Shown piece after piece: positions 1,507 to 20,000 of a DNA stretch of 20,000 nucleotides (position 1 is the stretch's first letter; each line of letters begins with the position of its first letter). The stretch comes from an uncultured virus (IMG/VR IMGVR_UViG_3300031687_000005). Its lineage: Duplodnaviria > Heunggongvirae > Uroviricota > Caudoviricetes. The notes under the pieces were generated by a model. The model ran no database searches. It was not told the DNA's origin and was given only the letters and a program-made list of their open reading frames with translations. The translations under genes and the position numbers were made by a program. The stretch lies in IMG/VR virus record IMGVR_UViG_3300031687_000005, one strand, 5' to 3'.

Positions 1507-1514
1507 ACGACAAC

Positions 1515-1566: not shown

Positions 1567-1569
1567 TTG
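1562..1569 (+). promoter_or_regulatory. Bacteroidota-type -7 promoter box (TAnnTTTG)
   Basis: TATATTTG ends 16 nt before the ATG at 1586. No clear -33 TTTG at canonical spacing. Confidence 0.45.
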
Positions 1570-1585
1570 TGTAAAACATAATTGA

Positions 1586-2167: not shown

Positions 2168-2688
2168 CATTAATAATAAACCCAATAACTCAGTCTCAGA
2201 CTATATCTATAAACTCTTTTGGTATAGGGTTAAACTCTCTACCGAATGGTTCTCTTGAGAGTTTGATGGAACTTAAGTACGCCTTTGAAGGGTGGCCCTC
2301 TATTCCGTCTAACGTATCTTATGGTGATGTTGTTGTTTTCAATAACATAGTACCAGCAAATGTAAACCCTTATGGGGTTGAATTAGAGAAGGCTAATACT
2401 AGCACACCAGGTCATGCTAATAAAACTATGATGGTGTTTATTAGTCACGAGAGTGGAGTTCTTACGTTAATGCATAAAGGTTATATTGATTTTACTACTA
2501 TAACAGAAAGCTCTCTTAGCTCTTACGCTCAAGGTGACGGTTTATATGTGAACGGAAGTAATATAGCTATAAGCCCACCCCAAACTACAGGTAGTTGGGT
2601 TAAGTCTATAGGGTTTTGTATGCCGAACATGGAAGGAGTTTACAGAATCTGGTTTGAATCAGACAGTACGTATTTTACAATAGGATAA
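2164..2688 (+). CDS. Putative virion structural/fibre accessory protein
   Basis: 174 aa, ATGA overlap with the upstream gene. C-terminal 'GDGLYV...PPQTTGSWVKSIGFC...IWF' resembles small beta-rich capsid/fibre accessory domains. Confidence 0.45.
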   Translation: MTLIINPITQSQTISINSFGIGLNSLPNGSLESLMELKYAFEGWPSIPSNVSYGDVVVFNNIVPANVNPYGVELEKANTSTPGHANKTMMVFISHESGVLTLMHKGYIDFTTITESSLSSYAQGDGLYVNGSNIAISPPQTTGSWVKSIGFCMPNMEGVYRIWFESDSTYFTIG

Positions 2689-2711
2689 ACTAATTATTAA
2701 AAATAAACACA

Positions 2712-6317: not shown

Positions 6318-6326
6318 AACAACGAC

Positions 6327-6872
6327 ATGGCTCAAACAAGTATAGAATATACTGAGTACGGTCAGCAATATATAACCCTTCCTCTGGTGATTAAAAACAC
6401 CATGGGCGGGGTAATTGTTGTTAGTAAGGTTTATGTACAGAACATTTTCTTGCCAGAATCGGCTGTATCACAAGATGATTTGGTTTTAACCATAAATGAA
6501 AGTAACTCTGATTACTCAGAGGTTGAACAGAATTCAACAACCGACTACAAGGTTGTACACCCTAATGGGTTTAATGGAGCTTATGATGGCAACTTCAAAG
6601 TTGAACGAGTAATATCTTTAGGTATAAGCACTTCCTTTACTTTTCAGGTTGTATTTAACCCAAATCTTAGTAGGCATATAATAAATAGAGGTAACTTTGT
6701 AGGAAAGGTTGTGGTAGAGTATTCTATATATGGAATAGCTCAACCTAATTTCGAACTCAACTTAGAAGCATCGTGCTCAGATAAATCTATTACATTATTT
6801 AGCGGAGTACCTTATGGTAGCGTAAGTAATGTATTTGGAATAGCAGTAAACAACGTAAGAAACTTAAACTAA
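6327..6872 (+). CDS. Hypothetical structural protein (beta-rich)
   Basis: 181-aa ORF tightly packed in the operon; its stop overlaps the next ATG (TAATG). Confidence 0.55.
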   Translation: MAQTSIEYTEYGQQYITLPLVIKNTMGGVIVVSKVYVQNIFLPESAVSQDDLVLTINESNSDYSEVEQNSTTDYKVVHPNGFNGAYDGNFKVERVISLGISTSFTFQVVFNPNLSRHIINRGNFVGKVVVEYSIYGIAQPNFELNLEASCSDKSITLFSGVPYGSVSNVFGIAVNNVRNLN

Positions 6873-7990
6873 TGTTAGCAATAGGAGATTCAAAATTCGG
6901 AGGAACAGTGTTCTACTACAACCCTGATGACGATTTTTGTCTTGTCCTTGCTGATGTTGAGGTAACTGGACAACCTTTTAACGCAGACAACTCATTATCT
7001 GCTATAAATATGCCCGTCGAACAGACAGGGTTTTATCAGGGTTATACTAATTCATTAGTTATATACCCTTACCTTAGTTCTGGCGACGTACTTCATACTG
7101 TAATGAATAGCTCTGAAGGTGGGTATACTGATTGGTACTTACCAACCTTTACTGAATTGATGTACATTTTTACATCAAATGCCCTACCTGCTTTTAGTTA
7201 CGGTGTTCATTACACTGACGCTTACGTCTCTTCAAGTCTTGATTCTGCCACGAACGGATTTACATACGGTGTAGAATATTCAGGTAATTATGGCTCTCTT
7301 GTTTCCGTTAACTTCACCGAATCAACAAATGTTCGTGCTAAGATGATTAGAACTCAATCACTAACGAGTGTTGCTATACATGATGTAGATGAGTCTAAGC
7401 TGTATGGTGATTCTGAACTTTCGTTTGGGTTTATAACTCAAGATAGTGTACCTATTGATGCTGTAGATTTAACCACTCAAACTATAACAATACATACAGA
7501 TGAGCCTACCAGTATAATACTATCGACTTATATAAATGTTGATAAGTTAGAGTTTGACGAACAGCCAACTCCTGTTAATATTTTTGGAAGTATTCCTTTC
7601 TTGAAGAGCGTTGTTGATGATAGTGGAAGGGTATTCCACCCAAACCCCAATCTTACATCCACCCTTTATACTATAGAAAATGCCACTGCTTATCAGGTAA
7701 CTTTAGATAAAGCGATTCATTACGGTTTTGATATTGTAGGAGAAAGTTTAGCTGGTAATTTTAGCTTTACCATACCTGAAGGTGCTAGCTTCCTTCCTTT
7801 TATGGCTGAAACAACTATGTTTATAGCTTCAGGAAGAAACCCTTTATTTGGTAGAAGTGTTGTAAATAAGATAGATAAGCTAATAGACCTTCAAAGTGGA
7901 ATGACATTCCCTGGTCAACTTAAAAAACTTGTACCTGGTAGGGGTTATATAATAAATACCACAGATTCAATAACCGTAAAATTCAAGTAG
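6872..7990 (+). CDS. Tail protein with N-terminal DUF1566/Lcl-like (C-type lectin fold) domain
   Basis: 'IGDSKFGGTVFY...GGYTDWYLPTFTEL...YVSSS...VR' matches the DUF1566-type G(G)xVFY / DWxLPSxxEL / YWSSS / VRxVR pattern. Confidence 0.6.
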   Translation: MLAIGDSKFGGTVFYYNPDDDFCLVLADVEVTGQPFNADNSLSAINMPVEQTGFYQGYTNSLVIYPYLSSGDVLHTVMNSSEGGYTDWYLPTFTELMYIFTSNALPAFSYGVHYTDAYVSSSLDSATNGFTYGVEYSGNYGSLVSVNFTESTNVRAKMIRTQSLTSVAIHDVDESKLYGDSELSFGFITQDSVPIDAVDLTTQTITIHTDEPTSIILSTYINVDKLEFDEQPTPVNIFGSIPFLKSVVDDSGRVFHPNPNLTSTLYTIENATAYQVTLDKAIHYGFDIVGESLAGNFSFTIPEGASFLPFMAETTMFIASGRNPLFGRSVVNKIDKLIDLQSGMTFPGQLKKLVPGRGYIINTTDSITVKFK

Positions 7991-7991
7991 T

Positions 7992-8654
7992 ATGCTGAAT
8001 ATAAACTACCCTTTAGAGGTGACTGAAAACGAAGGAATTCATAGAATTAGAATCACTAAAGAGTCTTTAATTCTTGCTATATCTCAAATGCCTGAACATA
8101 CGTCTATAGGCGTTATGAGTAATGCTTTGATTGATGTATTTAGAGCTGCTGAAGCTGGCATAGAGGTTGAGTGGGTTAGCGGTGCTGTAGACAAGAACTA
8201 CGAGCTTATGCACTCTATATTCATGGGTACGGCTTCAGGGGTGGGTTATGGTTTGTTTGACGCTTGGGATAGAAAAGATTATCAGAACATATACAACGCT
8301 AAAAGAGATATACTATTAGTAACTGATGTTATATATACTGTAGTTATTAAGGATAGTTATACTAATGTGCTTGGTGGGTTTGAACCTTTTACAGCGAAGT
8401 TAGCAATAAAAAAAGATTTCTACATACTTCCTTTGACTCCAGCTAAAGGACTTGGGCATATACACTTAAGTATTACGCAAAACGATGGCTCTGTTTATGG
8501 TAAGTATAAAATAGCAAATAAATACCTTTTCTTTACATCTAAACAATACTTAAACTCATCACCTAGTTACAACTTTCTTATAGGTCTTAATCAAAACCCT
8601 ATAGACAGGGATATGAAAGGATTTGTAATCTTAGATGTTTTAAAAACTAACTAA
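7992..8654 (+). CDS. Hypothetical protein (structural block)
   Basis: 220-aa ORF, 1 nt from each neighbour. Confidence 0.55.
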   Translation: MLNINYPLEVTENEGIHRIRITKESLILAISQMPEHTSIGVMSNALIDVFRAAEAGIEVEWVSGAVDKNYELMHSIFMGTASGVGYGLFDAWDRKDYQNIYNAKRDILLVTDVIYTVVIKDSYTNVLGGFEPFTAKLAIKKDFYILPLTPAKGLGHIHLSITQNDGSVYGKYKIANKYLFFTSKQYLNSSPSYNFLIGLNQNPIDRDMKGFVILDVLKTN

Positions 8655-8655
8655 C

Positions 8656-10488
8656 ATGGCTAAAGAAGTAAAAATAACCATAAACACAAAGAATCCAACC
8701 ATATCGGTAGGAACAAAAGCTAATGTAGTTGTTGGTCGTGATTCCTCCCTAGACCCCGCTATACACTTTAAATCTACAGGGTCTTCAGGTAATAAAGGAG
8801 ACTCTGGTTCGGTAGGTCCAGCTGGTGTTGATGGTATTGATGGAGTTGGATTAACTACAGTTCAAGAAAATCAAATAGGGGTTAATAGTTTAAAGATTAC
8901 GTACCCTGAAGATGATGCTTCTAAACTTGCTGGAATATCTGCAGGTGCTGAGGTCAATGTTAGGTCTGATTGGAATTCTATTTCAGGTGATTCAGAGATA
9001 CTAAACAAACCATTTGTACCTCTTGACTTGACTGTAAGTGGTCAAGGGATTGTTCATGCAAACAACTACACAGACACCGATACAGTATACACACACCCAA
9101 GTAACCATTCTATATCTGTTATAACGGGATTGCAGTCAGCCTTAAATGGTAAGATAAACAATGCTCAAGTACTTACAGATGTGCCTAGTGGTGCTTTATT
9201 CACTGATACAGACACTGTATACTCTCACCCCGACAATCATGCCATTTCTGTAACTACAGGGCTACAATCAGCTCTAGATGGAAAGGTAGATGACGGACAG
9301 GTATTAACAGATGTCCCTTCGGGAGCTTTGTTTACAGATACAAACACTGTATATGACGCTACAACTATACAGGCGGAGGTTGACGCAAACACAACAAAGA
9401 ATACAAACGTAGTAGGAGACCTTACCGTAACAGCGGCTGGACATAAGTTACAACTAAACACTTCAAACGGTGCTGATGTGTCACTGCCATTAGCTACTAC
9501 GGATGCGTGGGGAGTAATGTCAGACGAGATGTTTGATGAACATGAGATTAATAAAGCTAAAGTATCTAACATAGTACAAGCAAATGTGACAGGTAATGCA
9601 GGTACAGTGACAACTAATGCCGACCTGACTGGCGATGTAACGTCTTCAGGGAATGCAACTACAATGGCTGCGGCACAAACAAACATAAACTCTATACTTG
9701 CTACAGATTTAGTTATCGGTGAAGATTTACAAACCTGCATAGATTTTGGTACTCCTAACAATATTAAGCTTAAATTAAATAATACTGATGAAATAACTAT
9801 AGCTGGAAACTCTATGTACCCTACTTCAAACAATGGTATAGCTCTAGGTGTTTCTAATAATGGTTGGTCAGATTTATTTCTAGCAAGTGGGGCAGCTCTG
9901 TCTTGGAGTGGGGGGGCTTATGTATATTCATTTTCAAATGAATTGCACGTAGGTCTTAACACATCTGGAAGTGATGTAAAGATACATGGAGATACTTCTG
10001 GGGCACACTTATTTTGGGATGAAAGTGCTGACAATTTATCTGCTCAAGGAAGCGCAACAATAACTGCTACAACCGTAACAACTTCCACTCACTTTATACA
10101 CACTGGTACTTACTTAAGTTACTCATACTCAAGGTATTTACCATTGAATGGTAGTTTGAATGAACAGAATACATCTACATCTGGACCTGAATATACTTCA
10201 TTTGTATGGCCTTACGGTGGTACTGTAAAATCTATATGGGTAAGAACTGAAGCGGACTCTGGAGATACGGTTATTAAACTATATAAAGGAGCTAATGGTA
10301 GTTCTGTTAGTACAGCCATGGGGAGTGTAACTCTTGATTGTGATGCTAACACTTCCGTCGAATTTGATATGACTGGAGTAACAAACAACTTCAATCAAGG
10401 AGAGGCTATGGCTATATGGATTGACCCAACCAATGCATCTCAAGGTGTGAATGTTACTATAGAATGTGTGTTTAATTTAACAACTTAA
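8656..10488 (+). CDS. Tail fibre protein with short collagen-like segment and internal 44-aa repeats
   Basis: 610 aa. Gly-X-Y run (GSSGNKGDSGSVGPAGVDGIDG), 'SDWN....SEILNKP' and 'HxISxxTGLQSAL' fibre motifs, and a beta-rich C-terminal head. Confidence 0.75.
   Translation: MAKEVKITINTKNPTISVGTKANVVVGRDSSLDPAIHFKSTGSSGNKGDSGSVGPAGVDGIDGVGLTTVQENQIGVNSLKITYPEDDASKLAGISAGAEVNVRSDWNSISGDSEILNKPFVPLDLTVSGQGIVHANNYTDTDTVYTHPSNHSISVITGLQSALNGKINNAQVLTDVPSGALFTDTDTVYSHPDNHAISVTTGLQSALDGKVDDGQVLTDVPSGALFTDTNTVYDATTIQAEVDANTTKNTNVVGDLTVTAAGHKLQLNTSNGADVSLPLATTDAWGVMSDEMFDEHEINKAKVSNIVQANVTGNAGTVTTNADLTGDVTSSGNATTMAAAQTNINSILATDLVIGEDLQTCIDFGTPNNIKLKLNNTDEITIAGNSMYPTSNNGIALGVSNNGWSDLFLASGAALSWSGGAYVYSFSNELHVGLNTSGSDVKIHGDTSGAHLFWDESADNLSAQGSATITATTVTTSTHFIHTGTYLSYSYSRYLPLNGSLNEQNTSTSGPEYTSFVWPYGGTVKSIWVRTEADSGDTVIKLYKGANGSSVSTAMGSVTLDCDANTSVEFDMTGVTNNFNQGEAMAIWIDPTNASQGVNVTIECVFNLTT
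9070..9354 (+). repeat. Intragenic tandem repeat, 132-nt/44-aa unit (two full copies plus the start of a third)
   Basis: TDTDTVYTHPSNHSISVITGLQSALNGKINNAQVLTDVPSGALF (9070), TDTDTVYSHPDNHAISVTTGLQSALDGKVDDGQVLTDVPSGALF (9202), TDTNTVY (9334). Confidence 0.9.
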
Positions 10489-10492
10489 GATT

Positions 10493-10873
10493 ATGCCATT
10501 AGGAACTCAACAGTCTGTATCAATACACGACAAGACAGGAAACGATAAAGAGAAACTTAAAGATGAGTTTGACGCTGGACACATGAATAGGATTGCTACT
10601 AGCCCAGACGAAGAACCTATGATAGCAAGTTTGATATATCAAATAGGATTATTGAAAGAAGATATAGACGAACTACGTAGGTACTTAACTGCAGAGGTTG
10701 GTGACGGAGCTGCAGGAACTAACGGAACTAACGGAACTAACGGTAGTAACGGTTCAGATGCTACTGTAGATTTATTTATGAGAACGCTTAACGGCAATAG
10801 ACTACCGAAAAAAGCCCCAGCTAGAGGTTCAGGCGTTCTTTGGAACGATAGAGGAATAGTTAAAATAGGATAA
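10493..10873 (+). CDS. Small coiled-coil/collagen-like fibre-associated protein
   Basis: 126 aa. Heptad stretch LKEDIDELRRYL, then G-T-N triplets and a C-terminal 'LP...P..SGVLWNDRGIVKI' motif typical of phage fibre-type proteins. Confidence 0.6.
   Translation: MPLGTQQSVSIHDKTGNDKEKLKDEFDAGHMNRIATSPDEEPMIASLIYQIGLLKEDIDELRRYLTAEVGDGAAGTNGTNGTNGSNGSDATVDLFMRTLNGNRLPKKAPARGSGVLWNDRGIVKIG
10715..10759 (+). repeat. 9-bp tandem repeat (GGAACTAAC x3 plus 2 degenerate copies) encoding Gly-X-Y triplets
   Basis: ggaactaac ggaactaac ggaactaac ggtagtaac ggttcagat. Confidence 0.9.
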
Positions 10874-10876
10874 GAC

Positions 10877-11458
10877 ATGGCTAAGATAGATATAAACTTA
10901 ACTACAAGTGTAGATATAAGTGTAAGAGAAGGAGATACCTTTCAGTTAGATTTAGGTATAACTAAAGAAGATGGGACTGATTTTAGTTTTGAAAATGATG
11001 CTATTATATTTTCTGTGTATGGTTCAGGAGGAGTCCCTGTAATGTTATTAAACTCTGGTTCTGTTCCTCATTACATAACAAGCTCTAGTCCTAGTGGTTT
11101 TGTTTCTGCAAGTATGCTACAAAAAGCTAGAGCCATAAGTAATCTACTAGATTTTGATATAAATTTACTTACCTTCATTGATTATGATAGTTATATAATA
11201 CCACGATATTTAAATAGTGCAAGTGGATTAACTACTAGTATTTATAATGTTCAACAAATAGAAGGAGGGATAAGGTTGATTGTTCAATCTCACGCATTTA
11301 ACCTACCTCAAGGCTCGTACTCTTACGAACTTAAGGTGGCTTCTGATTTAGTAGATGTACTTAAAGGGGTTAGTTACGATACAAATAATATTGTAGATAG
11401 CTACTTTAAAAACTCATCAACATGGATGGAGGGTAAATTTATAGTAAACAAAAACTAA
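10877..11458 (+). CDS. Putative tail/baseplate beta-sandwich protein (paralog 2 of 3)
   Basis: 'DISVREGDTF...FNLPQGSYSYELK...TWMEGKFIV'. Confidence 0.55.
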   Translation: MAKIDINLTTSVDISVREGDTFQLDLGITKEDGTDFSFENDAIIFSVYGSGGVPVMLLNSGSVPHYITSSSPSGFVSASMLQKARAISNLLDFDINLLTFIDYDSYIIPRYLNSASGLTTSIYNVQQIEGGIRLIVQSHAFNLPQGSYSYELKVASDLVDVLKGVSYDTNNIVDSYFKNSSTWMEGKFIVNKN

Positions 11459-11460
11459 TT

Positions 11461-12387
11461 ATGGCTATTAAAATCACAGCAGACAAATCTAAGAAGGTTG
11501 ATATAACAGCAAAGAGAGGTGATAGCTTTTCTGTAAACCTTGAGATTAAAAACGAATCAGGCTCTCTTTTAGAATTCACTAGAGACGGATACACGTACCT
11601 AAAGTACCAAGAATACTTATCTAACAATTACAGTGTCTCTTCTGGGGATAAGTGGTCGTGGTTAGGGGCTGAAGACGTTATGTTATTTGTTGTAACAACG
11701 GAAGATGACACCCCTGTACTGGCTGCGTGTAGTTCAGATTTAGACTTAGCTATGTTTAATCAAGACTTTGACCCTACTAGTCATTTAACTAACGTAATCC
11801 CTAATTCAGGATTGTACTCAAAACCAACCAATCAGAGAGATTTTGATAAGTACTACGACACTATGCACATGTATAAAATTATAGGTATAGCTAAAGCTAT
11901 ATCTAAGTCGTCTAATAAAAACACTGAACTAGAGAGGTCTAACTATGGTTTAGAAAACTTAGTTTTTTCAACCACATACATGAAGACTCTTGTGGATTTT
12001 GAAACCCCAGGTAGCTTTCAAATGAGTACAACCACTAACTACAGAACGTGGTTGCAGAATATCTTTACAAATTTAGACGTTATAACAAACTCAAACCTTT
12101 TAGTTGCCATGAAAAATACTATTGATGGGTACACAGAGCCTACTGGTAATGATTATATTTTCTGGGGAAGAGTGGAGGGCAACAATGCTTTTACGATTAA
12201 ATTTGACCATAACCACTTTAATCTTCCCGCAGGTAATTACAAATACACTTTTAAATCTCTTTCTGATTACAATATGGCTGAATCTACTGATGCTAGTACA
12301 ATTAACTATGAGGTAGATTCAAATGAAGGTAATCTATACACCAACATAACAACGTGGATACACGGTAAGCTCAAGATAAATGACTAA
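11461..12387 (+). CDS. Putative tail/baseplate beta-sandwich protein (paralog 3 of 3, long central insertion)
   Basis: 'DITAKRGDSF...FNLPAGNYKYTFK...TWIHGKLKI'. Confidence 0.55.
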   Translation: MAIKITADKSKKVDITAKRGDSFSVNLEIKNESGSLLEFTRDGYTYLKYQEYLSNNYSVSSGDKWSWLGAEDVMLFVVTTEDDTPVLAACSSDLDLAMFNQDFDPTSHLTNVIPNSGLYSKPTNQRDFDKYYDTMHMYKIIGIAKAISKSSNKNTELERSNYGLENLVFSTTYMKTLVDFETPGSFQMSTTTNYRTWLQNIFTNLDVITNSNLLVAMKNTIDGYTEPTGNDYIFWGRVEGNNAFTIKFDHNHFNLPAGNYKYTFKSLSDYNMAESTDASTINYEVDSNEGNLYTNITTWIHGKLKIND

Positions 12388-12520
12388 AGAAGAAGATAAG
12401 AAGGTTAACGAGGAAGTGGCTAGAAAACAATGGGACAGTTGGTTAACTGATTTAGAAGAAGGAGACCAACCAGAGTCATGCACTATAGACGACCCTGACT
12501 GTGAGGCATGTGGTTCGTAA
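12380..12520 (+). CDS. 46-aa acidic micro-protein ending in CTIDDPDCEACGS (resembles the NrdA C-terminal redox tail)
   Basis: Not in the ORF track. Hand translation: MTKEEDKKVNEEVARKQWDSWLTDLEEGDQPESCTIDDPDCEACGS*. It overlaps the previous stop and fills the gap. Confidence 0.7.
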   Translation: MTKEEDKKVNEEVARKQWDSWLTDLEEGDQPESCTIDDPDCEACGS

Positions 12521-12528
12521 AAAAGAAT

Positions 12529-12536
12529 TATATTTG
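12529..12536 (+). promoter_or_regulatory. Bacteroidota-type -7 promoter box (TAnnTTTG)
   Basis: TATATTTG in the intergenic gap before the ATG at 12560; the same octamer as at 1562. Confidence 0.45.
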
Positions 12537-12559
12537 ATAACAAACTAAAACAATATACA

Positions 12560-12817
12560 ATGGCTTCAATACATGATTTAAACACAAGACTAACAGCTTC
12601 AAACGGAACTGATATACATAAAGGAGTTGTCGCAACAACAGCAACTTCAGGCACTTACTTTGGTTGTCAATTCTTAAATGACGGTACATACACTTTTATT
12701 ATGGATGGAGTAACGAATACTTCTATTGATATAGTTGGAGGGTGTGTCCTGTTTGGGGATATAACATCTATGGATGCTACGGGTGGGTCAGATGCAGTCG
12801 CTCTATACAAAAACTAA
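12560..12817 (+). CDS. Small hypothetical beta-rich protein
   Basis: 85 aa, with an A-rich leader (AACTAAAACAATATACAATG). Confidence 0.6.
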   Translation: MASIHDLNTRLTASNGTDIHKGVVATTATSGTYFGCQFLNDGTYTFIMDGVTNTSIDIVGGCVLFGDITSMDATGGSDAVALYKN

Positions 12818-13029
12818 TGGAGATATTCAAGAACGATAATAACTGGAACGAGAAGTCTATCGTAGGATTCATAGCATTTGCTGTTATGTGTCTTATTATG
12901 GTAGCCGACCTTGTTACTGGCTGGCTCGGGGCTGAACTAATAGTAAACGAGTTTGTTTACCAAGCCTTTGTATGGGTTGTATTAGGATGCTTCGGTATAT
13001 CAGGTGCTGAGAAATTCGCCAAGAAATGA
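12817..13029 (+). CDS. Small two-TM membrane protein (holin-like)
   Basis: Start reassigned to ATG 12817 (TAATG overlap): MEIFKNDNNWNEKSIVGFIAFAVMCLIMVADLVTGWLG...AFVWVVLGCFGISGAEKFAKK, with two hydrophobic helices and a basic C-terminus. Confidence 0.6.
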   Translation: MEIFKNDNNWNEKSIVGFIAFAVMCLIMVADLVTGWLGAELIVNEFVYQAFVWVVLGCFGISGAEKFAKK

Positions 13030-14042
13030 AAAAATTACTATACATATTATTACTATGCCCAGCAATTGCAAGTGCTCAAATTCTAAGGTTCGCAACTTTC
13101 TACGCAAGCTTTTCAACTGGTGCTCCTTTCACGGAGAGCCAACAATTCCTAGTGAATGGTGTTGCTGGTTCAGGCCATCTAATGGAGATGACAGAGGTTA
13201 ATGAACCTAACTATAATATCAGTATAGGATTAAGAAAGATAGCTCGATTCGACTATCAAGTAAAACAAGGTAACTTTTACACTGGCTCAGAGAATGAGGT
13301 AAGTGATTACGCTACAATATCTAACGCTCCTGGGTTGGAGTACTTATTTGAGTACTCTTCTATACGGAGTAGGGGTATGACGTTTCGTCAACATGAATAT
13401 AAACTTCGGTATATATCAAACAACTACACAGCGAGAGCTTCGTATGTTAATGACGGTTTAATTAATTTACAATATACTTTGGGCGAAGTTAGGTTACGCA
13501 AGAGTTTGGGGAATGTAGACCTCACTCTGGGCGTAGCCCATCGTTCTCACCCTGTATATGGTTATTCCCCAGTAACTGAATGGTTCTCTAAGCCTGAGAA
13601 TAAACATTGGTGGCAGTTAGCTAATGAGTTTGGGTTCTATAGTGACGAGACTGAGTGCTGGACTAATGACGGTACATGCGTTGCAGTCTCAGATGTGGAG
13701 TTCTATACTTACCATTTCACTGATGCTGTAAACGAATACAATAATCAACAACTCGACCTTTTAGGGCTTCAACAAGAAGTGTCTGCTGTGATAGGAGCTG
13801 ATTATTATATGTACTCAACTAAAGCTTGGATACATGCTTGGGCTTCCTTATACCCTATACACAAAGGGCTGAGTGATTATTCATATTCTTATCCTAACAA
13901 ACAGACTGAATGGGATTTAGGTTTTGTTGCAGGCTCAAAAGTTAACAGACATTTTAGTATATTTGTAGAAGGCAGACACCTCAAGTACTGGGATATACTG
14001 TCTTACGAGATGAAAATTGGATTAAACTATATAATATTCTAA
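13026..14042 (+). CDS. Putative outer-membrane beta-barrel protein
   Basis: Sec signal MKKLLYILLLCPAIASA|Q, alternating aromatic beta-strands, and a terminal beta-signal-like 'YEMKIGLNYIIF' ending in Phe. Confidence 0.65.
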   Translation: MKKLLYILLLCPAIASAQILRFATFYASFSTGAPFTESQQFLVNGVAGSGHLMEMTEVNEPNYNISIGLRKIARFDYQVKQGNFYTGSENEVSDYATISNAPGLEYLFEYSSIRSRGMTFRQHEYKLRYISNNYTARASYVNDGLINLQYTLGEVRLRKSLGNVDLTLGVAHRSHPVYGYSPVTEWFSKPENKHWWQLANEFGFYSDETECWTNDGTCVAVSDVEFYTYHFTDAVNEYNNQQLDLLGLQQEVSAVIGADYYMYSTKAWIHAWASLYPIHKGLSDYSYSYPNKQTEWDLGFVAGSKVNRHFSIFVEGRHLKYWDILSYEMKIGLNYIIF

Positions 14043-14045
14043 ACA

Positions 14046-14324
14046 ATGGCTAAAGAATTAAGTGAAGACACGTCAATACAGTTAAGTGTAAAAACATTAG
14101 GTGGTATAGCCTTCGGAATTGCAACCCTAGTAGGTATGTGGTTCATGTTACAGAATGACATAGCAGAGGCTAGAGAGCTTCCCTTACCAACAGTTCCTGC
14201 AATTACACGTATGGAGTTTGACATGAAGGATAAGCTTGTTAGACAGACTATAATGAATACCCAGGATGATGTTTCCGAGATTAAGGAAGACATGAAGTTA
14301 ATCAAAGCAAAGCTTTATGAATAA
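14046..14324 (+). CDS. Single-TM protein with C-terminal coiled coil
   Basis: TM segment 'TLGGIAFGIATLVGMWFML', followed by heptads 'VSEIKEDMKLIKAKL'. Confidence 0.6.
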   Translation: MAKELSEDTSIQLSVKTLGGIAFGIATLVGMWFMLQNDIAEARELPLPTVPAITRMEFDMKDKLVRQTIMNTQDDVSEIKEDMKLIKAKLYE

Positions 14325-14685
14325 GCTACTACTCCTATTCTTGCTCACTACAAATATTGTAGCTCAAGAGTTCATCACTTCTAGCTCATTTGATTCAAAG
14401 ACAGCTAAAGGAATAGTGGTAATTGAGTTCTATGCCTCATGGAACGATGGTAATAAAGTTACTTTTCTACCCTCATTAAAGGATTGCGATAGTTATAAGC
14501 TGTCTATTGTTAATAACTCTTCAATACAACAACGTTTTAACGTTACTTCTATACCTACCTTGATTGTCTTGAACAACGGTATTGAAGAAAAGAGATTTAA
14601 CCCTAACATAATGATGCAGTTAAAGACTACCCAAAAGGAAGTCCAGTCATTTATAGACGAGATAATATTTAATAAGTTTCAGTAA
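14317..14685 (+). CDS. Exported thioredoxin-fold protein lacking the CxxC active site
   Basis: Signal peptide ...IVA|Q. 'GIVVIEFYASWNDGNK' sits where WCxxC is expected, and 'FNVTSIPTLIVLNNGIEEKRF' matches the thioredoxin cis-Pro region. Confidence 0.7.
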   Translation: MNKLLLLFLLTTNIVAQEFITSSSFDSKTAKGIVVIEFYASWNDGNKVTFLPSLKDCDSYKLSIVNNSSIQQRFNVTSIPTLIVLNNGIEEKRFNPNIMMQLKTTQKEVQSFIDEIIFNKFQ

Positions 14686-15233
14686 TGGATAAGGATAGAT
14701 TAGAGTATTCAGGATGGCTAACGCTTTGTATAGCGTTGTTAGTTTTCATTTTAATAGGTATTAGCACTGTAGCTAAAGCTCAACAACAGCAAGTGTTTGT
14801 AGAATGTACAACAGGAGAATATCCTGATGAAGTTTCTTGGCAGATACTAACATGTAATGGAGGTATCTTACTAGAAGGTATAGCCCCGTACTTAGGTGCT
14901 GTGGTTTTACCAGAATATTACCAGATAAACATGGTTGATTCATACGGAGACGGATGGAATGGTGCATACTTATATGTAGGACAGACTGAATATGGTTTCT
15001 TATCTGATGTAGATTGGATAGACTCTCTTGGTACTTGGCCTCAAGAATTTAAAGAACAACTAGTAGACGTAGGGTGTTTGACTATAGGGATAGAAGAGGT
15101 AGATAATACAAGATTCATTCCAACTCACTACTACGATATTTTAGGTAGAGAAGTAGAACCCGTTAGAGGTTTCTATATAGCAAGCAATGGCATACTAACT
15201 AGAAAGGTTTACATAGATGAGATTAAGCGATAA
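14685..15233 (+). CDS. Secreted protein with DSYGDGWNG domain and T9SS type-A CTD-like C-terminus
   Basis: Signal/TM ...VAKA|QQQ. 'GEYPDEVSWQI...DSYGDGWNG' is a module common in flavobacterial secreted proteins. The C-terminus reads 'IGIEE...YYDILGREV...GFYI....TRKVYI'. Confidence 0.65.
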   Translation: MDKDRLEYSGWLTLCIALLVFILIGISTVAKAQQQQVFVECTTGEYPDEVSWQILTCNGGILLEGIAPYLGAVVLPEYYQINMVDSYGDGWNGAYLYVGQTEYGFLSDVDWIDSLGTWPQEFKEQLVDVGCLTIGIEEVDNTRFIPTHYYDILGREVEPVRGFYIASNGILTRKVYIDEIKR

Positions 15234-15675
15234 TTTTGTATTGTCTGAGGTCACTCGAAGCAATGCAGCTAAACGATTGGGCATAGATAATGGACCTAGT
15301 AAAGAACACTTACGAAGTATACAAAGAATTATTACTAACCTTATACAACCTATGCGAGAAGCTCTTGGTCCTATTAGGATTAGTAGTGGTTATCGCAACC
15401 CAGCCCTCAACAGGGCTATCGGTGGAAGTGTTAAAAGTCAGCACTGTAAAGGTGAGGCTTTGGATTTACAATTCTGGAGTGAAGGTAAAATATCTAACAA
15501 AGAGATATATAACTGGGTACTAGAGAGTGGTGTAGAGTTTGACCAAATGATTAATGAATTCGACTTCGCTTGGATACATATATCATTAATCAAAGAAGAT
15601 AATAGAAAGCAAGTGTTGGAAGCCTACAAGGATGAAGACAACGATACTAAATATAAATACGCAGACCTATCATGA
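15217..15675 (+). CDS. Peptidase M15A-family endolysin (Zn peptidoglycan peptidase)
   Basis: 'LSDNFVLSE...ISSGYRNPALNRAIGG...SQHCKGEALD...WIHIS' contains the SxH-x6-D and HxS Zn-ligand motifs. Confidence 0.85.
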   Translation: MRLSDNFVLSEVTRSNAAKRLGIDNGPSKEHLRSIQRIITNLIQPMREALGPIRISSGYRNPALNRAIGGSVKSQHCKGEALDLQFWSEGKISNKEIYNWVLESGVEFDQMINEFDFAWIHISLIKEDNRKQVLEAYKDEDNDTKYKYADLS

Positions 15676-16055
15676 GCAAACTACTAGATTTTTTAGGTGG
15701 AAGCATCTTAGGAAGCGTTGGTAATATAGTAGATAACCTTACTACCTCTGATGAGGAGAGGTTGGCTGCTAAGAAAGCAATAGAAGAAGTTCTTATGAAG
15801 GCCGAAGTTCAGGCACAACAGGAAGTCACAAAGCGATGGGAAGCTGACATGAAGTCTGATAACTGGCTTAGTAAGAATATACGACCACTGATATGCATAT
15901 TTTTAACTGCCATATTTGTGGTTGTTTCTATTTTTGATGGTAACGCTGGTGGATTTACTATATCACCAGGCTATGTACCTATATATCAAACACTTCTTAT
16001 AACTGTATATGGTGCTTACTTTGCTGGAAGGACTATAGAAAAGATAAAGAAATAA
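15672..16055 (+). CDS. 3TM (GTA-type) holin family protein
   Basis: 'VDNLTTSDEERL...RWEADMKSDNWLSKNIRP...YGAYFAGRTIEK'; adjacent to the endolysin. Confidence 0.75.
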   Translation: MSKLLDFLGGSILGSVGNIVDNLTTSDEERLAAKKAIEEVLMKAEVQAQQEVTKRWEADMKSDNWLSKNIRPLICIFLTAIFVVVSIFDGNAGGFTISPGYVPIYQTLLITVYGAYFAGRTIEKIKK

Positions 16056-16435
16056 TGATTGAGTATCTTATAATACACTCTACGGGTACAGAGAAAGATT
16101 ACGTACCTGAGAAGAAAGAATATAATTTAACTGTATCTTGTGATATAGTACACTTTAACGGACAGCTTTCAAGATATAAAGCGGGGAAGGAGCACCCATC
16201 TGCAGATGAAGCCTACAAGCACATTGCTTATATAGGGGGCAAATTAGATGGCAAAGCTTCTGACACCGCAACTTGGAAGCAGTACGATAGTTTAGAGCAT
16301 GTTGTTATGTATCATTTACTATACAACCAGAACTTAAAGATAGCCTCTTCTTCTTTATTCTTTAATACCGACGCTGGTATAAAAGTTAGGAGATGGTTAG
16401 AAGACATAGGAGTTAACAAGAAAAATATAATGTAA
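16055..16435 (+). CDS. Degenerate N-acetylmuramoyl-L-alanine amidase (Amidase_2/T7 lysozyme-like)
   Basis: 'IEYLIIHSTGT...HIAYIGG...DTATWKQYDSL...VRRWL' follows the amidase pattern, but the C-terminal GH...CP Zn ligands are absent. Confidence 0.55.
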   Translation: MIEYLIIHSTGTEKDYVPEKKEYNLTVSCDIVHFNGQLSRYKAGKEHPSADEAYKHIAYIGGKLDGKASDTATWKQYDSLEHVVMYHLLYNQNLKIASSSLFFNTDAGIKVRRWLEDIGVNKKNIM

Positions 16436-16578
16436 TGACTATAGACATAGGCTTATATACAGGGATTCTTTTTGGAGTGAGAAGCTTTGAGCCTTCAGAG
16501 ACTCATCCATACTGGGAGTTTCATATTTATTTACCTCTTTTTTATATAGCATATATGAATGTAGACATAAGAGAATAG
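16435..16578 (+). CDS. 47-aa hypothetical protein
   Basis: Not in the ORF track. MTIDIGLYTGILFGVRSFEPSETHPYWEFHIYLPLFYIAYMNVDIRE*; TAATG overlap, fills the gap. Confidence 0.6.
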   Translation: MTIDIGLYTGILFGVRSFEPSETHPYWEFHIYLPLFYIAYMNVDIRE

Positions 16579-16580
16579 TT

Positions 16581-16859
16581 ATGGCAAGAAACACATTAGC
16601 GGGTAAAGGTAAAGGGTTAAGTAGAAGTGCAAAATACTACGCTGCAAACCCTGACGCTCGTAAAAAAAAGCAGGCTTATGATAAGAAGTATCATTCAACT
16701 GATAAACGTAAGAGTTATAGAGCTAAGTTGAATAAGAAAAATCGTGAAGCAGGTACTTACGGTAATAAGGATGGGAAAGATATGTCTCATACTAAGAAGG
16801 GTAAGTTAGTCAAGGAAAAGCAATCTACAAACAGAGCAAGAAATCGTGGGAAAAAATAA
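16581..16859 (+). CDS. Small highly basic protein, degenerate HNH-like
   Basis: K/R-rich; 'DGKDMSH...NRARN' resembles the minimal HNH-like proteins of phages. Confidence 0.5.
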   Translation: MARNTLAGKGKGLSRSAKYYAANPDARKKKQAYDKKYHSTDKRKSYRAKLNKKNREAGTYGNKDGKDMSHTKKGKLVKEKQSTNRARNRGKK

Positions 16860-18168
16860 GAATGACGAGCTACGTGCTTATCTAGTCAAAAATCCAGAGA
16901 AATTAAATGGTGGTTATTCAGATACTGCCGCAATGTTTAACACATCTTACGAAGCTGTAAGAGGGCAAGCCAGAAACTTAAGGGCGGCTTTCAATGACGA
17001 TATACAGGCAGCTTCATACTCATCGGCAGAAATACCAAATGAGAAAGTCATCACCAATGAAAAGGAAGACTCGTTAACAATATCAGTAGAGGACAGTAAT
17101 AGAGTAAAATCATTAGATGACCTTATACAGAACTGTAGAGTGGACCTGGATACCTGGGAGGTTGACTGGTTTGACATCGGTACATACGAAGTAACAGGAT
17201 TTGATAACGACAGGAAACCTGTCACTGTTACCATGTATAGAACCAAAGCTAAGTTTAAAAAGATAGATGTCTGGAAGAACATAGCTATACTAAGAGAAGA
17301 TTTAAAACAAGACCTATTAGAAGCATTCCAAGCTTATGCATTTAAACCTACTTATACTATTAGTAAGAAAGAAAGCGAAGGCTATTTGCTCGAGATTGGG
17401 GCATACGACCTGCATTTGGGTAAGTTGGGGATTGATGGCGATAACTATAGTCTTGATGTGGCTAGGGATAGGCTTTTCAGTGCTCTTCATTCCTTATTTG
17501 ATAAGGCGAGAGGATTCAACATCGAAGAAATAGTCTTCGTAGTAGGTAATGACTTCCTTAACATAGATAGAGCTAACCCGTTTAACTCTACTACAGCAGG
17601 TACACCACAAAGTAATACAGTTTCTGCATACGAGGCGTATAGATTTGGGAGAAAGTTGCTGGTTGAGGCTATTAATGGTTTGGCTGCTCAAGCTCCTGTT
17701 CGTGTCGTTGTTGTTCCTGGTAATCATGACGAAGAGTCTATGTTACATATGGGCGACGCATTAGAAGCTCTATACGAGAATACTCCACATGTTACAGTAG
17801 ATAATAGCAGACCCTTAATGAAGGGTTACCAATATGGTGAATGCTTACTTATCTTCGACCATGGACACAGAGTAAAGAACTATAAGAACCTTGCGTCTGT
17901 CATCTCCCAACGCTTTAGAGATGTTTGGAGTAGTGTGAGACACATTGAAGTCCACAGAGGACACCTACACAGCTTAAAGACGAGTGTAATGGGTCAGGTT
18001 GAAGAACTAAACGGTATTGCAGTGCGACACTTGGGTAGTATGTCTGCAACAGACCAATGGCATGATGATAGTGGATACATCTCCTCAATCAAGAGAGCTC
18101 ATGCTTTTATATGGCATAAGAAGAATGGTATGCAGTGTGAGTATTACTATAACGTCCCAATGACCTAA
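16846..18168 (+). CDS. Calcineurin-like metallophosphoesterase with N-terminal extension
   Basis: Motifs DLHLG, GND, GNHD, HGH and GHLH in canonical order; GTG start. Confidence 0.85.
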   Translation: MGKNKNDELRAYLVKNPEKLNGGYSDTAAMFNTSYEAVRGQARNLRAAFNDDIQAASYSSAEIPNEKVITNEKEDSLTISVEDSNRVKSLDDLIQNCRVDLDTWEVDWFDIGTYEVTGFDNDRKPVTVTMYRTKAKFKKIDVWKNIAILREDLKQDLLEAFQAYAFKPTYTISKKESEGYLLEIGAYDLHLGKLGIDGDNYSLDVARDRLFSALHSLFDKARGFNIEEIVFVVGNDFLNIDRANPFNSTTAGTPQSNTVSAYEAYRFGRKLLVEAINGLAAQAPVRVVVVPGNHDEESMLHMGDALEALYENTPHVTVDNSRPLMKGYQYGECLLIFDHGHRVKNYKNLASVISQRFRDVWSSVRHIEVHRGHLHSLKTSVMGQVEELNGIAVRHLGSMSATDQWHDDSGYISSIKRAHAFIWHKKNGMQCEYYYNVPMT

Positions 18169-18297
18169 CCACTACTGTCCATAGGTGATAAGTATTTTAA
18201 AAAAATGTAACATAATTATCTATGACTAAAGTATCTAAACCTTATCTAGACTCTACATACATTATACTACAAGACTTTATGTATTCATTAAATCCAC

Positions 18298-18325
18298 TTG
18301 ACCCAGCTCCAAAAGAGCTGGTCAA
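18298..18325. terminator. Hairpin between convergent transcription units
   Basis: TTGACCCAGCTC-CAAAA-GAGCTGGTCAA (one bulge) lies in the gap between the + strand end (18168) and the - strand end (18390). No clean U-tract. Confidence 0.45.
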
Positions 18326-18389
18326 TGAATGTATATACCAACTTGTTTGTAATTGGTATGATGAATGTGGAAACACTTGTAAGAATTAA

Positions 18390-18605
18390 TTATTCTCCCT
18401 TAGTCGGCTTAACCTTCTTCTTAGAAGGCTTAGGCTTACACTTACATTGTGCTTCACCTTTAGATACCTTTGAACAACACTTAGAGGTTTTCTTCTTTTC
18501 TTTGATTTCTTCAAAATCTCTGTAATAATCCCTTTCATCGTATAGATATTCTTTAGCTATTAGCGCAACGCTTGCGCCTAATATAAGTAGTAGTAGTAAC
18601 TTCAT
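18390..18605 (-). CDS. Small membrane-anchored Lys/Cys-rich protein
   Basis: 71 aa; N-terminal hydrophobic helix, then 'KCCSK...QCKCK'. Confidence 0.6.
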   Translation of the reverse strand: MKLLLLLILGASVALIAKEYLYDERDYYRDFEEIKEKKKTSKCCSKVSKGEAQCKCKPKPSKKKVKPTKGE

Positions 18606-18694
18606 CTTCCTTTAGTTTTGTTAACTGACTTGTCGTATATAATGAATAGGATAACAGCTACTGCCACCCCTACCATGAATATTGCTTGTGTCAT
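18602..18694 (-). CDS. 30-aa single-TM micro-protein
   Basis: Not in the ORF track. MTQAIFMVGVAVAVILFIIYDKSVNKTKGR*; ATGA overlaps at both ends. Confidence 0.65.
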   Translation of the reverse strand: MTQAIFMVGVAVAVILFIIYDKSVNKTKGR

Positions 18695-19035
18695 CTTAGT
18701 TTCTTTATTAGTTCAAGTAAATCTTTCACAAGACTTTCTTTGTTTACAGATACGATATGTTCTTCAATGCTTCTATCGAAATCGTCTCGTGCGTTTAGTA
18801 AGTCAAAGAAATTACTGTCTTCGCCTTCTTCGTCTTTCTTAGCTTCTTCAGCTTCTATTCGCTCTCCTCTCTCGTTCATTAGAATGTCTATCTTATCCTC
18901 TGCTGAGTCTACTCTAGCACTTTCTAGTTGTATTAGTTGATACAATACATCTCTAGTTTTGTTTGCACTCACTAATGAATCTGCGATTTGACCTAACGCT
19001 TGTGTAACGTGTTCGTTGAATTCTTCTTGTTTCAT
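18691..19035 (-). CDS. Acidic coiled-coil hypothetical protein
   Basis: 114-aa ORF bounded by degenerate junction repeats. Confidence 0.65.
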   Translation of the reverse strand: MKQEEFNEHVTQALGQIADSLVSANKTRDVLYQLIQLESARVDSAEDKIDILMNERGERIEAEEAKKDEEGEDSNFFDLLNARDDFDRSIEEHIVSVNKESLVKDLLELIKKLR

Positions 19036-19042
19036 CTTGGTT

Positions 19043-19243
19043 TTATTTAGCTCTGGTTAATATATTGACAGGTTCTTTACCTCGTCCTATTAGTAGCTTA
19101 TCTACTGCGATAGCTGCCTCTCTTTCTGTATCAAACTTACTCCTACTAACTCCATGTATATTTATGTACCAGCGTTGTATGTTATTAGTTCGAACACTAG
19201 CTACATGTTTATACATACTCTTAGCGTAGTTCATTTTATTCAT
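19043..19243 (-). CDS. AP2-like DNA-binding domain protein
   Basis: 'YKHV...RWYINI...FDTEREAAIAVD...G.EPVN' matches the AP2 pattern (YxGV..W.A.I...F.T..EAA.AYD). Confidence 0.65.
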   Translation of the reverse strand: MNKMNYAKSMYKHVASVRTNNIQRWYINIHGVSRSKFDTEREAAIAVDKLLIGRGKEPVNILTRAK

Positions 19244-19244
19244 C

Positions 19245-19409
19245 TTAGTCTTGTTTTAGTTCGTTAGGGATTTCCATCCATCTAATTATTTCTCCTTTTA
19301 ATGTAGTTTCCCACATATCTAACCATTCTGTACTTGTGTAATAGCACAACTTGATGTAGCCGTTACTCATTCTACACACATAACTTCCTTCTTTTTTTGG
19401 TTGTTCCAT
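19245..19409 (-). CDS. 54-aa DUF551-like protein
   Basis: Not in the ORF track. MEQPKKEGSYVCRMSNGYIKLCYYTSTEWLDMWETTLKGEIIRWMEIPNELKQD*, with a P..G.Y...W...I..WM.IP pattern. It starts in one repeat and ends in the next. Confidence 0.7.
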   Translation of the reverse strand: MEQPKKEGSYVCRMSNGYIKLCYYTSTEWLDMWETTLKGEIIRWMEIPNELKQD

Positions 19410-19421
19410 CTTAGTCTTGTT

Positions 19422-19514
19422 TTAGTTGTTTAAAAATAGTATCGCCAAATAAAACACCCAAGTTGCCAATATTGAAGCTACGCACCATTCAAACAAGTTA
19501 TTTTTCTTCTTCAT
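19422..19514 (-). CDS. 30-aa single-TM micro-protein
   Basis: Not in the ORF track. MKKKNNLFEWCVASILATWVFYLAILFLNN*. The ATG comes from one repeat, and the stop is the first TAA of the next repeat. Confidence 0.65.
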   Translation of the reverse strand: MKKKNNLFEWCVASILATWVFYLAILFLNN

Positions 19515-19515
19515 C

Positions 19516-19713
19516 TTAGTCTTGTTTTAGTTCGTTGATTCTTTGATTCAATGCTTTTGCAATTTCCTCCACAATAAAACCATCATACATACTGTCAATC
19601 ATATCTATGACATTTTCTAGCTCCTCTACACCTCTTTGTTTAGCATACCTCTCAACTTGTGATTTAAGGTCGCTATCTGAAATGTCTAAAGTTATCGTTT
19701 GTGATTCATCCAT
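19516..19713 (-). CDS. 65-aa hypothetical protein ending ELKQD
   Basis: Runs repeat to repeat. Confidence 0.7.
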   Translation of the reverse strand: MDESQTITLDISDSDLKSQVERYAKQRGVEELENVIDMIDSMYDGFIVEEIAKALNQRINELKQD

Positions 19714-19714
19714 C

Positions 19715-19885
19715 TTAGTCTTGTTTTAGTTCTTCGAAGCTTGCAGTGCACTCTTCAATACCTACATTCTCTAGCATTTCTAGTTGGAATTCACCTGAAT
19801 CCATACTTGCTTTAGCTTTAACCATCATATCAGTGTAATACTGATCAGTCACTGTGGTTTCTATTGTTACTTTTACCTTCTTCAT
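19715..19885 (-). CDS. 56-aa hypothetical protein ending ELKQD
   Basis: Start reassigned to ATG 19885 (MKKVKVTIETT...), 1 nt after the upstream stop at 19887. Confidence 0.65.
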   Translation of the reverse strand: MKKVKVTIETTVTDQYYTDMMVKAKASMDSGEFQLEMLENVGIEECTASFEELKQD

Positions 19886-19886
19886 A

Positions 19887-20000
19887 TTACTCATCTTCTT
19901 CGTTATAACCATCGTCGTTATAAAATCCTGTACCACAAGTTCCGCACCAAGCGTCTTTCGGGTTCTCTCTGTCTTTTCCTAGATTGTCTTCACAATTAGG
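19887..20000 (-). CDS. C-terminal part of a probable zinc-ribbon protein (5'-truncated)
   Basis: Hand translation: ...PNCEDNLGKDRENPKDAWCGTCGTGFYNDDGYNEEDE*, with (C)PNC...CGTC and an acidic tail. Confidence 0.55.
   Translation of the reverse strand, partial: PNCEDNLGKDRENPKDAWCGTCGTGFYNDDGYNEEDE

Follow-up and report, generated by a model that had tools for sequence, protein, structure and literature searches.

A start-linked 21-nucleotide repeat at the junctions of a small-gene array in an uncultured virus of the Caudoviricetes

The window analysed here is a 20,000-nucleotide (nt) stretch of DNA from an uncultured virus of the Caudoviricetes (IMG/VR record IMGVR_UViG_3300031687_000005). 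Its plus strand carries late genes from position 1 to 18168 (a tail-fibre-like protein, an endolysin, a holin and an exonuclease). On the minus strand, eight small open reading frames (ORFs) without family assignment lie in a row between positions 20000 and 18390, and four junctions of this row are formed by one identical 21-mer, AACTAAAACAAGACTAAGATG, which ends with the ATG of the following gene (Table 1). All four exact copies of this junction repeat lie on the minus strand, while none is expected from 200 shuffles. The window contains no copy with one to five mismatches, and matches with six or seven mismatches occur at the chance level of the shuffles. The proteins encoded by these gene cassettes gave nothing above threshold in PHROGs and Pfam.

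Table 1. Junction repeats, array genes and the related plus-strand leader in the window (aa, amino acids).
Feature	Position	Strand	Description
Junction repeat copy 1	19711..19731	-	Exact match; joins the ..FEELKQD gene to the 65-aa gene, whose ATG forms its final three bases
Junction repeat copy 2	19512..19532	-	Exact match; ends the 65-aa gene in frame 1 (..INELKQD*) and opens the 30-aa ORF
Junction repeat copy 3	19407..19427	-	Exact match; ends the 30-aa ORF in frame 2 (..LNN*) and opens the 54-aa gene
Junction repeat copy 4	19241..19261	-	Exact match; ends the 54-aa gene in frame 1 (..PNELKQD*) and opens the 66-aa gene
Cassette gene ending ..SFEELKQD	19715..19885	-	Likely start ATG 19885, one base past the upstream TAA; no family match
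65-aa cassette gene	19516..19713	-	Real paralogous family whose members end R-I-x-E-L-K-Q-D; nine close homologues, 94-100% identity
30-aa hydrophobic ORF, MKKKNNLFEWCVASILATWVFYLAILFLNN	19422..19514	-	Stop is the repeat's AAC TAA; four nucleotide alleles in other contigs
54-aa cassette gene	19245..19409	-	Conserved core to ~Pro48; ELKQD tail encoded by the repeat
66-aa gene	19043..19243	-	Opened by copy 4; the junction at its 3´ end, GCTAAATAAAACCAAGATG, is no copy of the repeat
Three more small array genes (114, 30 and 71 aa)	18390..19035	-	Joined via ATGA overlaps and A-rich ..AAGATG contexts, not the repeat
Leader of 85-aa gene	12529..12562	+	TATATTTG (-7-box-like), 6 nt, AACTAAAACAA, 6 nt, ATG; generic leader of the repeat's type

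The repeat contains TAA in two reading frames. Frame 1 reads CTA AAA CAA GAC TAA and forms the 3´ end of the ORFs at 19245–19409 (54 aa), 19516–19713 (65 aa) and 19715–19936, all of which end in ELKQD; the last is listed in a GTG-started form of 73 aa, longer than the ..SFEELKQD gene of Table 1. Frame 2 reads AAC TAA and ends the 30-aa ORF at 19422–19514 (..FLNN). Both uses had been proposed in the initial annotation and are read directly from the sequence, and the repeat copies, the frame readings and the positions of A are as a whole as described there. Its statement that the repeat can terminate translation in all three frames holds for two of them, whereas the third stop (TGA) is conditional on an A after the ATG: frame 3 reads ..CTA AGA TG+N, and N is A in 35 of 62 unique junctions. 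The ORF at 18691–19035, which ends in ..KKLR, had been assigned to this third frame at a degenerate copy. Its TGA does overlap the next ATG at 18694, but the term is generous for a site that has only ACTAAGATG in common with the repeat and differs from it at seven positions in an ungapped comparison. The distance from stop to start is +1 nt in frame 1, +12 nt in frame 2 and −4 nt at an ATGA. Stops in at least two frames are found in 15 of the 24 other start regions of the window, compared with 23.6% of random 21-mers; multi-frame stops are ordinary for start regions of this genome and not distinctive of the repeat. An overlapping 25-aa ORF in the same cassette as the 30-aa ORF (19411–19488, minus strand) uses frame 1 and ends in ..FKQLKQD, and the four alleles do not settle which of the two is translated.

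Read directly, ACTAA is present twice in the 21-mer, 11 nt apart, and the 21-mer has no inverted repeat. It does not fold (minimum free energy (MFE) 0 kcal/mol), and one of two 41-nt contexts also gives 0. The predicted unpaired probability of the repeat is 0.685, compared with 0.478 for control windows of the same loci (n = 100 each), a difference to which A-richness alone contributes.

The repeat is a real, widespread and start-linked junction sequence. Exact copies are present at 57 viral-contig loci and more than 125 metagenome loci, some with record names reading "marine metagenome"; removal of redundancy leaves 148 unique junctions from these public viral and metagenome contigs. Its ATG opens an ORF of at least 25 aa in 115 of 115 complete ORFs (median 66, maximum 534), compared with 32% of random ATGs. 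Conservation falls to 0.9 bit or less directly outside the 21 nt at both edges, the exception being a weak A-rich extension of about 10 nt upstream. Among the matches listed, 14-mer half-site matches in viral contigs were mostly due to chance, and filtering left all-or-none matches only. Genes selected by their 5´ copy alone provide an unbiased sample of 3´ junctions (n = 57), which comprises 19 exact copies, 8 copies with one mismatch, 11 with two to six mismatches and 19 unrelated sequences. Most genes started by the repeat are tiny ORFans. It also heads captured cellular-type genes, in agreement with the earlier suggestion of gene capture: a Cpn60/GroEL-type chaperonin gene (534 aa; L018:1399–3003, minus strand) and a spore-photoproduct-lyase-like gene (284 aa; L009:3456–4310, plus strand) begin directly at exact copies. 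GroEL-like ORFs are also found in two whole phage records that carry the repeat (G001 and G005).

To tally frame use, an ATG start and an upstream ORF of at least 25 aa were required; 11 of the 148 junctions have too little flank, which leaves 137. The upstream ORF ends in frame 1 at 80 of these, in frame 2 at 11 and in frame 3 at none, and the other 46 have no upstream ORF, many of them following a non-coding structured element. Counted as families with the last 10 residues trimmed, the numbers are 25, 7 and 0. A threshold of 40 aa gives 76, 5 and 0 junctions, with 23 families in frame 1 and 5 in frame 2. The excess of frame 1 over frame 2 has a binomial p of ~0.001, run on earlier family counts of 26 and 7 (the cleaned counts being 25 and 7). 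One apparent frame-3 user at an exact copy proved to be an artefact of a truncated flank, as its full-length homologue reads frame 1. The initial annotation had expected that almost any sequence placed between two repeats would be started, stopped and coupled to the next gene, which is not borne out by so strong a skew; its third-frame stop, conditional in any case, is never seen used at an exact copy among the 137 junctions tallied. The skew indicates instead that cassettes mostly travel with a fixed 3´ register and not as arbitrary inserts. Common descent from a ..RIxELKQD family or a reinitiation advantage of the 1-nt gap between stop and start may account for the frame-1 excess.

One paralogous family of 38 unique proteins, which includes the 65-aa protein of the window, ends in R-I-x-E-L-K-Q-D. 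That a single genuine family has this ending suggests that the repeat began as the 3´ end of a ..RIxELKQD gene together with the leader of the next copy. Close homologues of the 54-aa protein end in ELKQD, ELNQD, ELKQER or ELKQG, and the two most distant end in APKE and APTQ. It had been proposed to check whether homologues outside a repeat context also end in ELKQD, and they do not: at the DNA level, the 54-aa homologues that lie outside any repeat (L283, L284 and L302) end in ..PESPTE, ..PKELFYL and ..MNLPK. Variant repeat copies mostly change tail residues (D to E, N, Y or K). These repeat-free homologues, together with the third or so of junctions that have no upstream ORF, indicate that the tail is written by the repeat; judged from such comparisons, ELKQD is a dispensable by-product of reading into the repeat and not a protein motif.

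Many arrays outside the window have, directly upstream of their first repeat, a conserved and structured ~100-nt element (L319:2782–2886 on the minus strand, L101:494–598, L144:196–300, L044:2903–3007 and others), which is confined to array heads. It consists of a 5´ hairpin and a variable GC-rich hairpin with the loop ..GGGATT..; the outer AGTC/GACT stem ends exactly at the repeat, and compensatory changes are seen in 8 of 18 predicted pairs. Rfam gave no match for this element in the eight loci scanned and reported only one tRNA (36 bits), which lies just upstream of the element in L004 and is not called by ARAGORN.

Upstream of the ATG, the repeat has A at −2, −3, −6, −8, −9 and −11 to −14. 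Efficient Shine-Dalgarno (SD)-independent initiation in Flavobacterium johnsoniae is linked to A at −3, −6, −12 and −13 and to an A-rich motif at −14 to −11, according to the part of the study used here (Baez et al., 2019; PMC6847099). The repeat matches each of these positions, as had been annotated, and also has the A-run; it contains neither GGAG nor AGGA. SD-like motifs (GGAG/GAGG/AGGA) occur in 1 of the 29 start regions of the window. The same regions carry A at −13 (25 of 29), −12 (21), −11 (22), −6 (19) and −3 (17). TAAAA begins at −18 to −12 in 11 of the 29 starts (7 of the 25 non-repeat starts), compared with 1.6% of random positions. The repeat is hence confirmed as a nucleotide-level, start-associated element with a Bacteroidota-type initiation context. 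The first 11 nt of the repeat, AACTAAAACAA, do recur exactly at 12543–12553 on the plus strand, 6 nt before the ATG at 12560, as previously reported; given the frequency of TAAAA in these start regions, the recurrence is best read as the phage's generic TAAAA(C) start motif and not as a relic of the repeat.

The SD-free, A-rich start regions and a TAnnTTTG-type box are the signal patterns from which we infer that the host is likely a member of the Bacteroidota. The sequence TATATTTG, present at 1562–1569 and 12529–12536 on the plus strand in two of the late region's few intergenic gaps, is a candidate −7 promoter box of the Bacteroidetes type. It fits the TAnnTTTG −7 element of Bacteroidetes promoters (consensus in the part of PMC6847099 used here), and TAnnTTTG is not enriched in the window (23 found, 22.8 expected). 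Transcripts of F. johnsoniae are mostly leadered, with a mean leader of 33 nt, according to the same part of that source (PMC6847099).

A second junction repeat, TAACCTTTAAATCAGAGTAAGATG, flanks a homologue of the 54-aa gene on both sides in another phage (L317:1501–1704, minus strand; loci L308–L318). This 24-mer is exact in 11 viral loci, where it precedes diverse genes, and has TAA at −21, −14 and −4, that is, in all three frames. All three stops are in use by upstream ORFs of 53–210 aa (−21 by five ORFs, −14 by one, −4 by three), which supports the general idea of a frame-proof connector. When aligned at the ATG, the two families agree only at T−15, AAA at −13 to −11, AGA at −8 to −6 and TAAG at −4 to −1. 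These common positions are the generic initiation positions plus the stop; the remaining positions, at which the families differ, suggest either lineage-specific passengers or a lineage-specific recognition word.

The flanks of the 21-mer fall into 41 upstream and 40 downstream classes, which form 57 pairings; one gene end has six different downstream partners and one gene start has five upstream partners. The window has its cassettes in the order 65-30-54-66 aa, L048 in the order 54-65-30. BLAST comparison with the phage records G001–G004 gives six blocks with edges at 19407, 19427, 19532, 19535 and 19732 of the window, each no more than 3 nt away from an edge of the repeat: homology stops at 19535 and 19532 for G002 and G004, and the blocks to G001 and G003 have 19407 or 19427 as a boundary. 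These differing orders and partners, with homology that breaks at repeat edges, show that cassettes are exchanged at the repeat. In L157 (plus strand, ~290–520), a deletion from inside a repeat copy into the 54-aa gene has produced a chimeric 62-aa ORF, in which the alternative frame of the 30-aa cassette is fused to the 54-aa gene.

Exact copies are carried by five whole phage records (G001–G005; 57–147 kb), in each of which they lie on one strand only. G002 is a close relative of the window (86–93% nt identity) and G004 a more distant one. G001 (147 kb), G003 (95 kb) and G005 (57 kb, with terminal repeats) have little in common with G002, G004 or the window beyond the cassettes and a few late genes; G001 shares 2–4 of its 172 ORFs with the other records and G005 shares 2–5 of its 69, and no ORF of at least 60 aa is common to all five. 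The array of G004 lies in a replication/recombination module: one side is bordered by genes for a Sak4-like annealing protein and a RusA-like resolvase, the opposite side by an exonuclease VIII-like gene. Cassette exchange by the phage's own relaxed, homology-dependent recombination machinery would fit these neighbours.

One small gene accompanies the repeat. An acidic, cysteine-rich protein of 40–54 aa, ending in ..QPExCxIDDxDCEACGS, is encoded at 12380–12520 on the plus strand of the window and has homologues in G001–G005, G013, G014, G017, G019 and G020. It is the only ORF of at least 28 aa with a match in all four other records among G001–G005. All six 21-mer-carrying records that are at least 86% complete encode it, as do 10 of the 15 such records overall; it was found in none of the five TAACCTTTAAATCAGAGTAAGATG records searched, only one of which is complete. 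Searches with the 46-aa form gave nothing above threshold in PHROGs and Pfam and only unnamed clusters in Atlas.

We consider it probable, with moderate confidence, that the 21-mer has two roles, as a portable, SD-free leader that brings its own stops and as a patch of homology for the exchange of cassettes. The position, conservation, context and shuffling of the repeat and the dispensability of the tail are direct observations; its function in translation, the coupling, the mechanism of recombination and the host are proposed from them. As a complete, unstructured and A-rich leader, the 21-mer would let SD-independent ribosomes of the Bacteroidota type start at its ATG. With its TAA stops, the upstream gene ends at a distance from that ATG, 1 nt in frame 1 and 12 nt in frame 2, that would be short enough for coupling by termination and reinitiation. 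Since many small accessory genes have these 21 bases on their flanks, the bases may also serve as a patch of homology. Here the phages' own recombination enzymes would swap, add, remove and rearrange whole genes, inside one phage or between phages that are otherwise unrelated, and this traffic would keep the copies identical. The probable source of the repeat is the one tandem ..RIxELKQD paralog family, whose 3´ end and start region would have given rise to it before it spread to unrelated genes. The start element, the repeat-written tail and the exchange of cassettes are retained from the earlier interpretation, whereas a connector for any insert and special multi-frame stops are not.

Several findings weigh against this leader-and-patch model. 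Identity at 21 of 21 positions exceeds the needs of an initiation context, and within each of the two repeat families invariance extends to the positions at which the families differ. Only three to five genes per genome use the repeat, while their neighbours manage with generic leaders. Many contigs come from related samples, and some of the exactness may reflect recent common ancestry. The frame-1 excess (25 versus 7 families) is unexplained by a passive any-frame connector and calls for common descent or for a benefit from coupling. In the alleles of the 54- and 65-aa genes, the flanking repeats are no less diverse than the gene bodies, although the measure is dominated by whole-junction replacements and is uninformative. 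As for the host, the 21-mer and a 338-aa signal-peptide protein of the window were both absent from genome contigs in a host search of two scans. Searches of cultured phages gave no close relative: megablast with 17000–20000 and a search with the 497-aa protein gave no match, and tblastn with the exonuclease and endolysin gave only matches below 60% identity, with mixed hosts.

The main rival is a factor that reads the word: the 21-mer would be an mRNA or DNA operator at which a sequence-specific trans-acting protein or RNA, of phage or host, switches the cassette genes together, as in RegA-type translational repression or stoperator-type control. All-or-none conservation over 21 nt, the paired ACTAA, the two lineage-specific families and the co-occurring cysteine-rich protein (in six of six near-complete 21-mer carriers and none of five TAACCTTTAAATCAGAGTAAGATG records) all agree with an operator. 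We nevertheless regard it as unlikely, given that five phages without a common ORF of at least 60 aa use the word, that the five genomes contain no antisense copy of the repeat with up to three mismatches, and that the positions common to both families are the generic initiation ones. The cysteine-rich protein is moreover acidic, lacks a known family and may just mark a shared host or environment, and its absence from the TAACCTTTAAATCAGAGTAAGATG group rests on records of which one is complete. It is a long shot that both kinds of function are combined in an expression socket shared by unrelated phages of one host guild, in which any gene recombined behind the 21-mer is translated at once on SD-blind ribosomes, sister lineages use TAACCTTTAAATCAGAGTAAGATG, and a dedicated small factor, for which the cysteine-rich protein would be the candidate, reads the word and prioritises or times the cassette mRNAs, which would be why the word is conserved to the letter.

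If each copy were a promoter for a host or phage RNA polymerase, every cassette would be transcribed as a separate unit, and its leader would be very short or absent. A model for this is halovirus HF2, in which intergenic repeats reportedly carry promoters, and the high conservation of the repeat, its one orientation and its place directly upstream of genes agree with it. A TAnnTTTG box also ends 4–6 nt before AACTAAAAC in L055 and at 12529 in the window, so that the repeat could mark a transcript 5´ end. The proposal is quite improbable all the same, as the sense strand of the 21-mer has no TTTG or TAnnTTTG element, TAnnTTTG stands at chance in the window, copies fall within the coding sequence of the gene upstream, cassettes are not separated by terminators, and a start at or inside the repeat would leave leaders of 0–18 nt, compared with the 33-nt mean of F. 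johnsoniae (consensus and mean from the part of PMC6847099 used here). Exact breakpoints, promoterless cassettes in one orientation and the same site in unrelated genomes are also what a dedicated, integron-like system of site-specific recombination with enzyme-moved cassettes would produce. A crossover site of that type is very improbable: the 21-mer neither folds nor contains an inverted repeat, no integrase or recombinase was seen in the 10 kb around the G004 array, where general recombination genes are found instead, no protein of at least 60 aa is common to all five carriers, some copies are variant, and deletions can be off-site, as in the L157 fusion. The dominance of frame 1, the reality of the 38-protein family that ends in RIxELKQD and the weak 10-nt upstream extension could suggest that the DNA repeat merely reflects a selected C-terminal motif, ELKQD or its extended form. 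This is extremely improbable, as the repeat is equally exact where nothing is encoded upstream, frame-2 genes of 45–77 aa that use it have no such tail, the tail is also missing from homologues outside the repeat, variant copies mostly alter residues rather than codons, and the extension reuses ATC for Ile.

By analogy, the closest described kind of element is the Start-Associated Sequences (SAS) of Cluster K mycobacteriophages. In the part of the report on SAS/ESAS used here, the 13-bp SAS, GGGATAGGAGCCC, contains the SD core AGGAG, and a role in translation initiation, possibly via a factor, is proposed (Pope et al., 2011; PMC3203893). Like the 21-mer, SAS are short, asymmetric repeats in one orientation a few nt upstream of starts, with a strong preference for ATG, at non-structural genes of different families, and often contain the upstream stop (PMC3203893, same part). 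The 21-mer likewise abuts starts in one orientation, before diverse, non-structural genes (the G004 module; 40 downstream classes). It has neither the AGGAG core nor the GGGATAGGAGCCC consensus, and differs in being 21 nt long, in including the ATG and in lacking an SD in an SD-free genome. It is also common to phages with almost no common genes and has no inverted repeat of the ESAS type, and that part of the SAS report does not describe cassette shuffling (PMC3203893).

Shuffling does characterise the promoter-early stem-loop (PeSL) cassettes of T4-type phages, which combine a sigma-70-like promoter with a terminator stem-loop; short conserved modules flank small ORFan genes in hyperplastic regions, and recombination between copies inserts, deletes and replaces genes, in the part of the report used here (Arbiol et al., 2010; PMC2839356). 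The present array resembles them in its alternative partners and orders and its homology breaks at repeat edges. Unlike PeSL, the 21-mer has no promoter or terminator and would act, if at all, in translation: its 21 nt read without a TTTG/TAnnTTTG element or sigma-70 hexamer pair, its MFE is 0, and a hairpin element exists only at array heads. T4-type PeSL cassettes were reportedly also the subject of work by Comeau et al. in 2014. The array also recalls integron cassettes, whose small promoterless genes likewise all point one way and move as units at a boundary that is repeated. The 21-mer differs in that it has no hairpin-forming attC or other folding inverted repeat and that the boundary is at the same time a putative ribosome-loading site. 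No tyrosine recombinase IntI was found among the 11 ORFs around the G004 array, and no integrase-profile scan of whole genomes was made.

As an initiation region, the 21-mer resembles the A-rich, Kozak-like regions of Bacteroidia, with no SD, A at −3, −6, −12 and −13, an A-run at −14 to −11 and low structure; its bases and its unpaired probability (0.685 versus 0.478) agree with that type. What has been published is a signal that favours certain bases statistically at a few positions rather than a fixed 21-nt word, and no such phage element is described in the part of that source used here (PMC6847099). Its stop-to-start distances of +1, +12 and −4 nt also fall within the very short range found necessary for coupling by reinitiation, according to the part of that study used here (Huber et al., 2023; PMC10666635). 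Those experiments were made in E. coli and Haloferax and not in an SD-blind host, and coupling here would be by extension from them. Reportedly, work by Huber et al. in 2019 had likewise found that termination–reinitiation of adjacent genes needs a short range between stop and start. In the literature, we found no description of the 21-mer or of such elements in Bacteroidota phages, including intergenic or start-codon repeats in Flavobacterium and Cellulophaga phages.

The repeat would extend start-associated and junction repeats from SD-using mycobacteriophages and T4-type phages to phages of hosts that ignore the Shine-Dalgarno sequence, with one 21-nt word as a common boundary of gene exchange between phages that share almost nothing else. 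It offers a concrete route by which small accessory genes and larger captured ones, such as the chaperonin gene, may move and be expressed at once in marine phage communities. As a compact natural leader, it is also a possible portable translation signal for the genetics of Flavobacteriia.

A late block of the plus strand (12817–14685), which adjoins the lysis genes, is kept in G001–G004. It encodes a 70-aa membrane protein, the 338-aa signal-peptide protein, a 92-aa protein and a secreted thioredoxin-like protein (Pfam PF00085).

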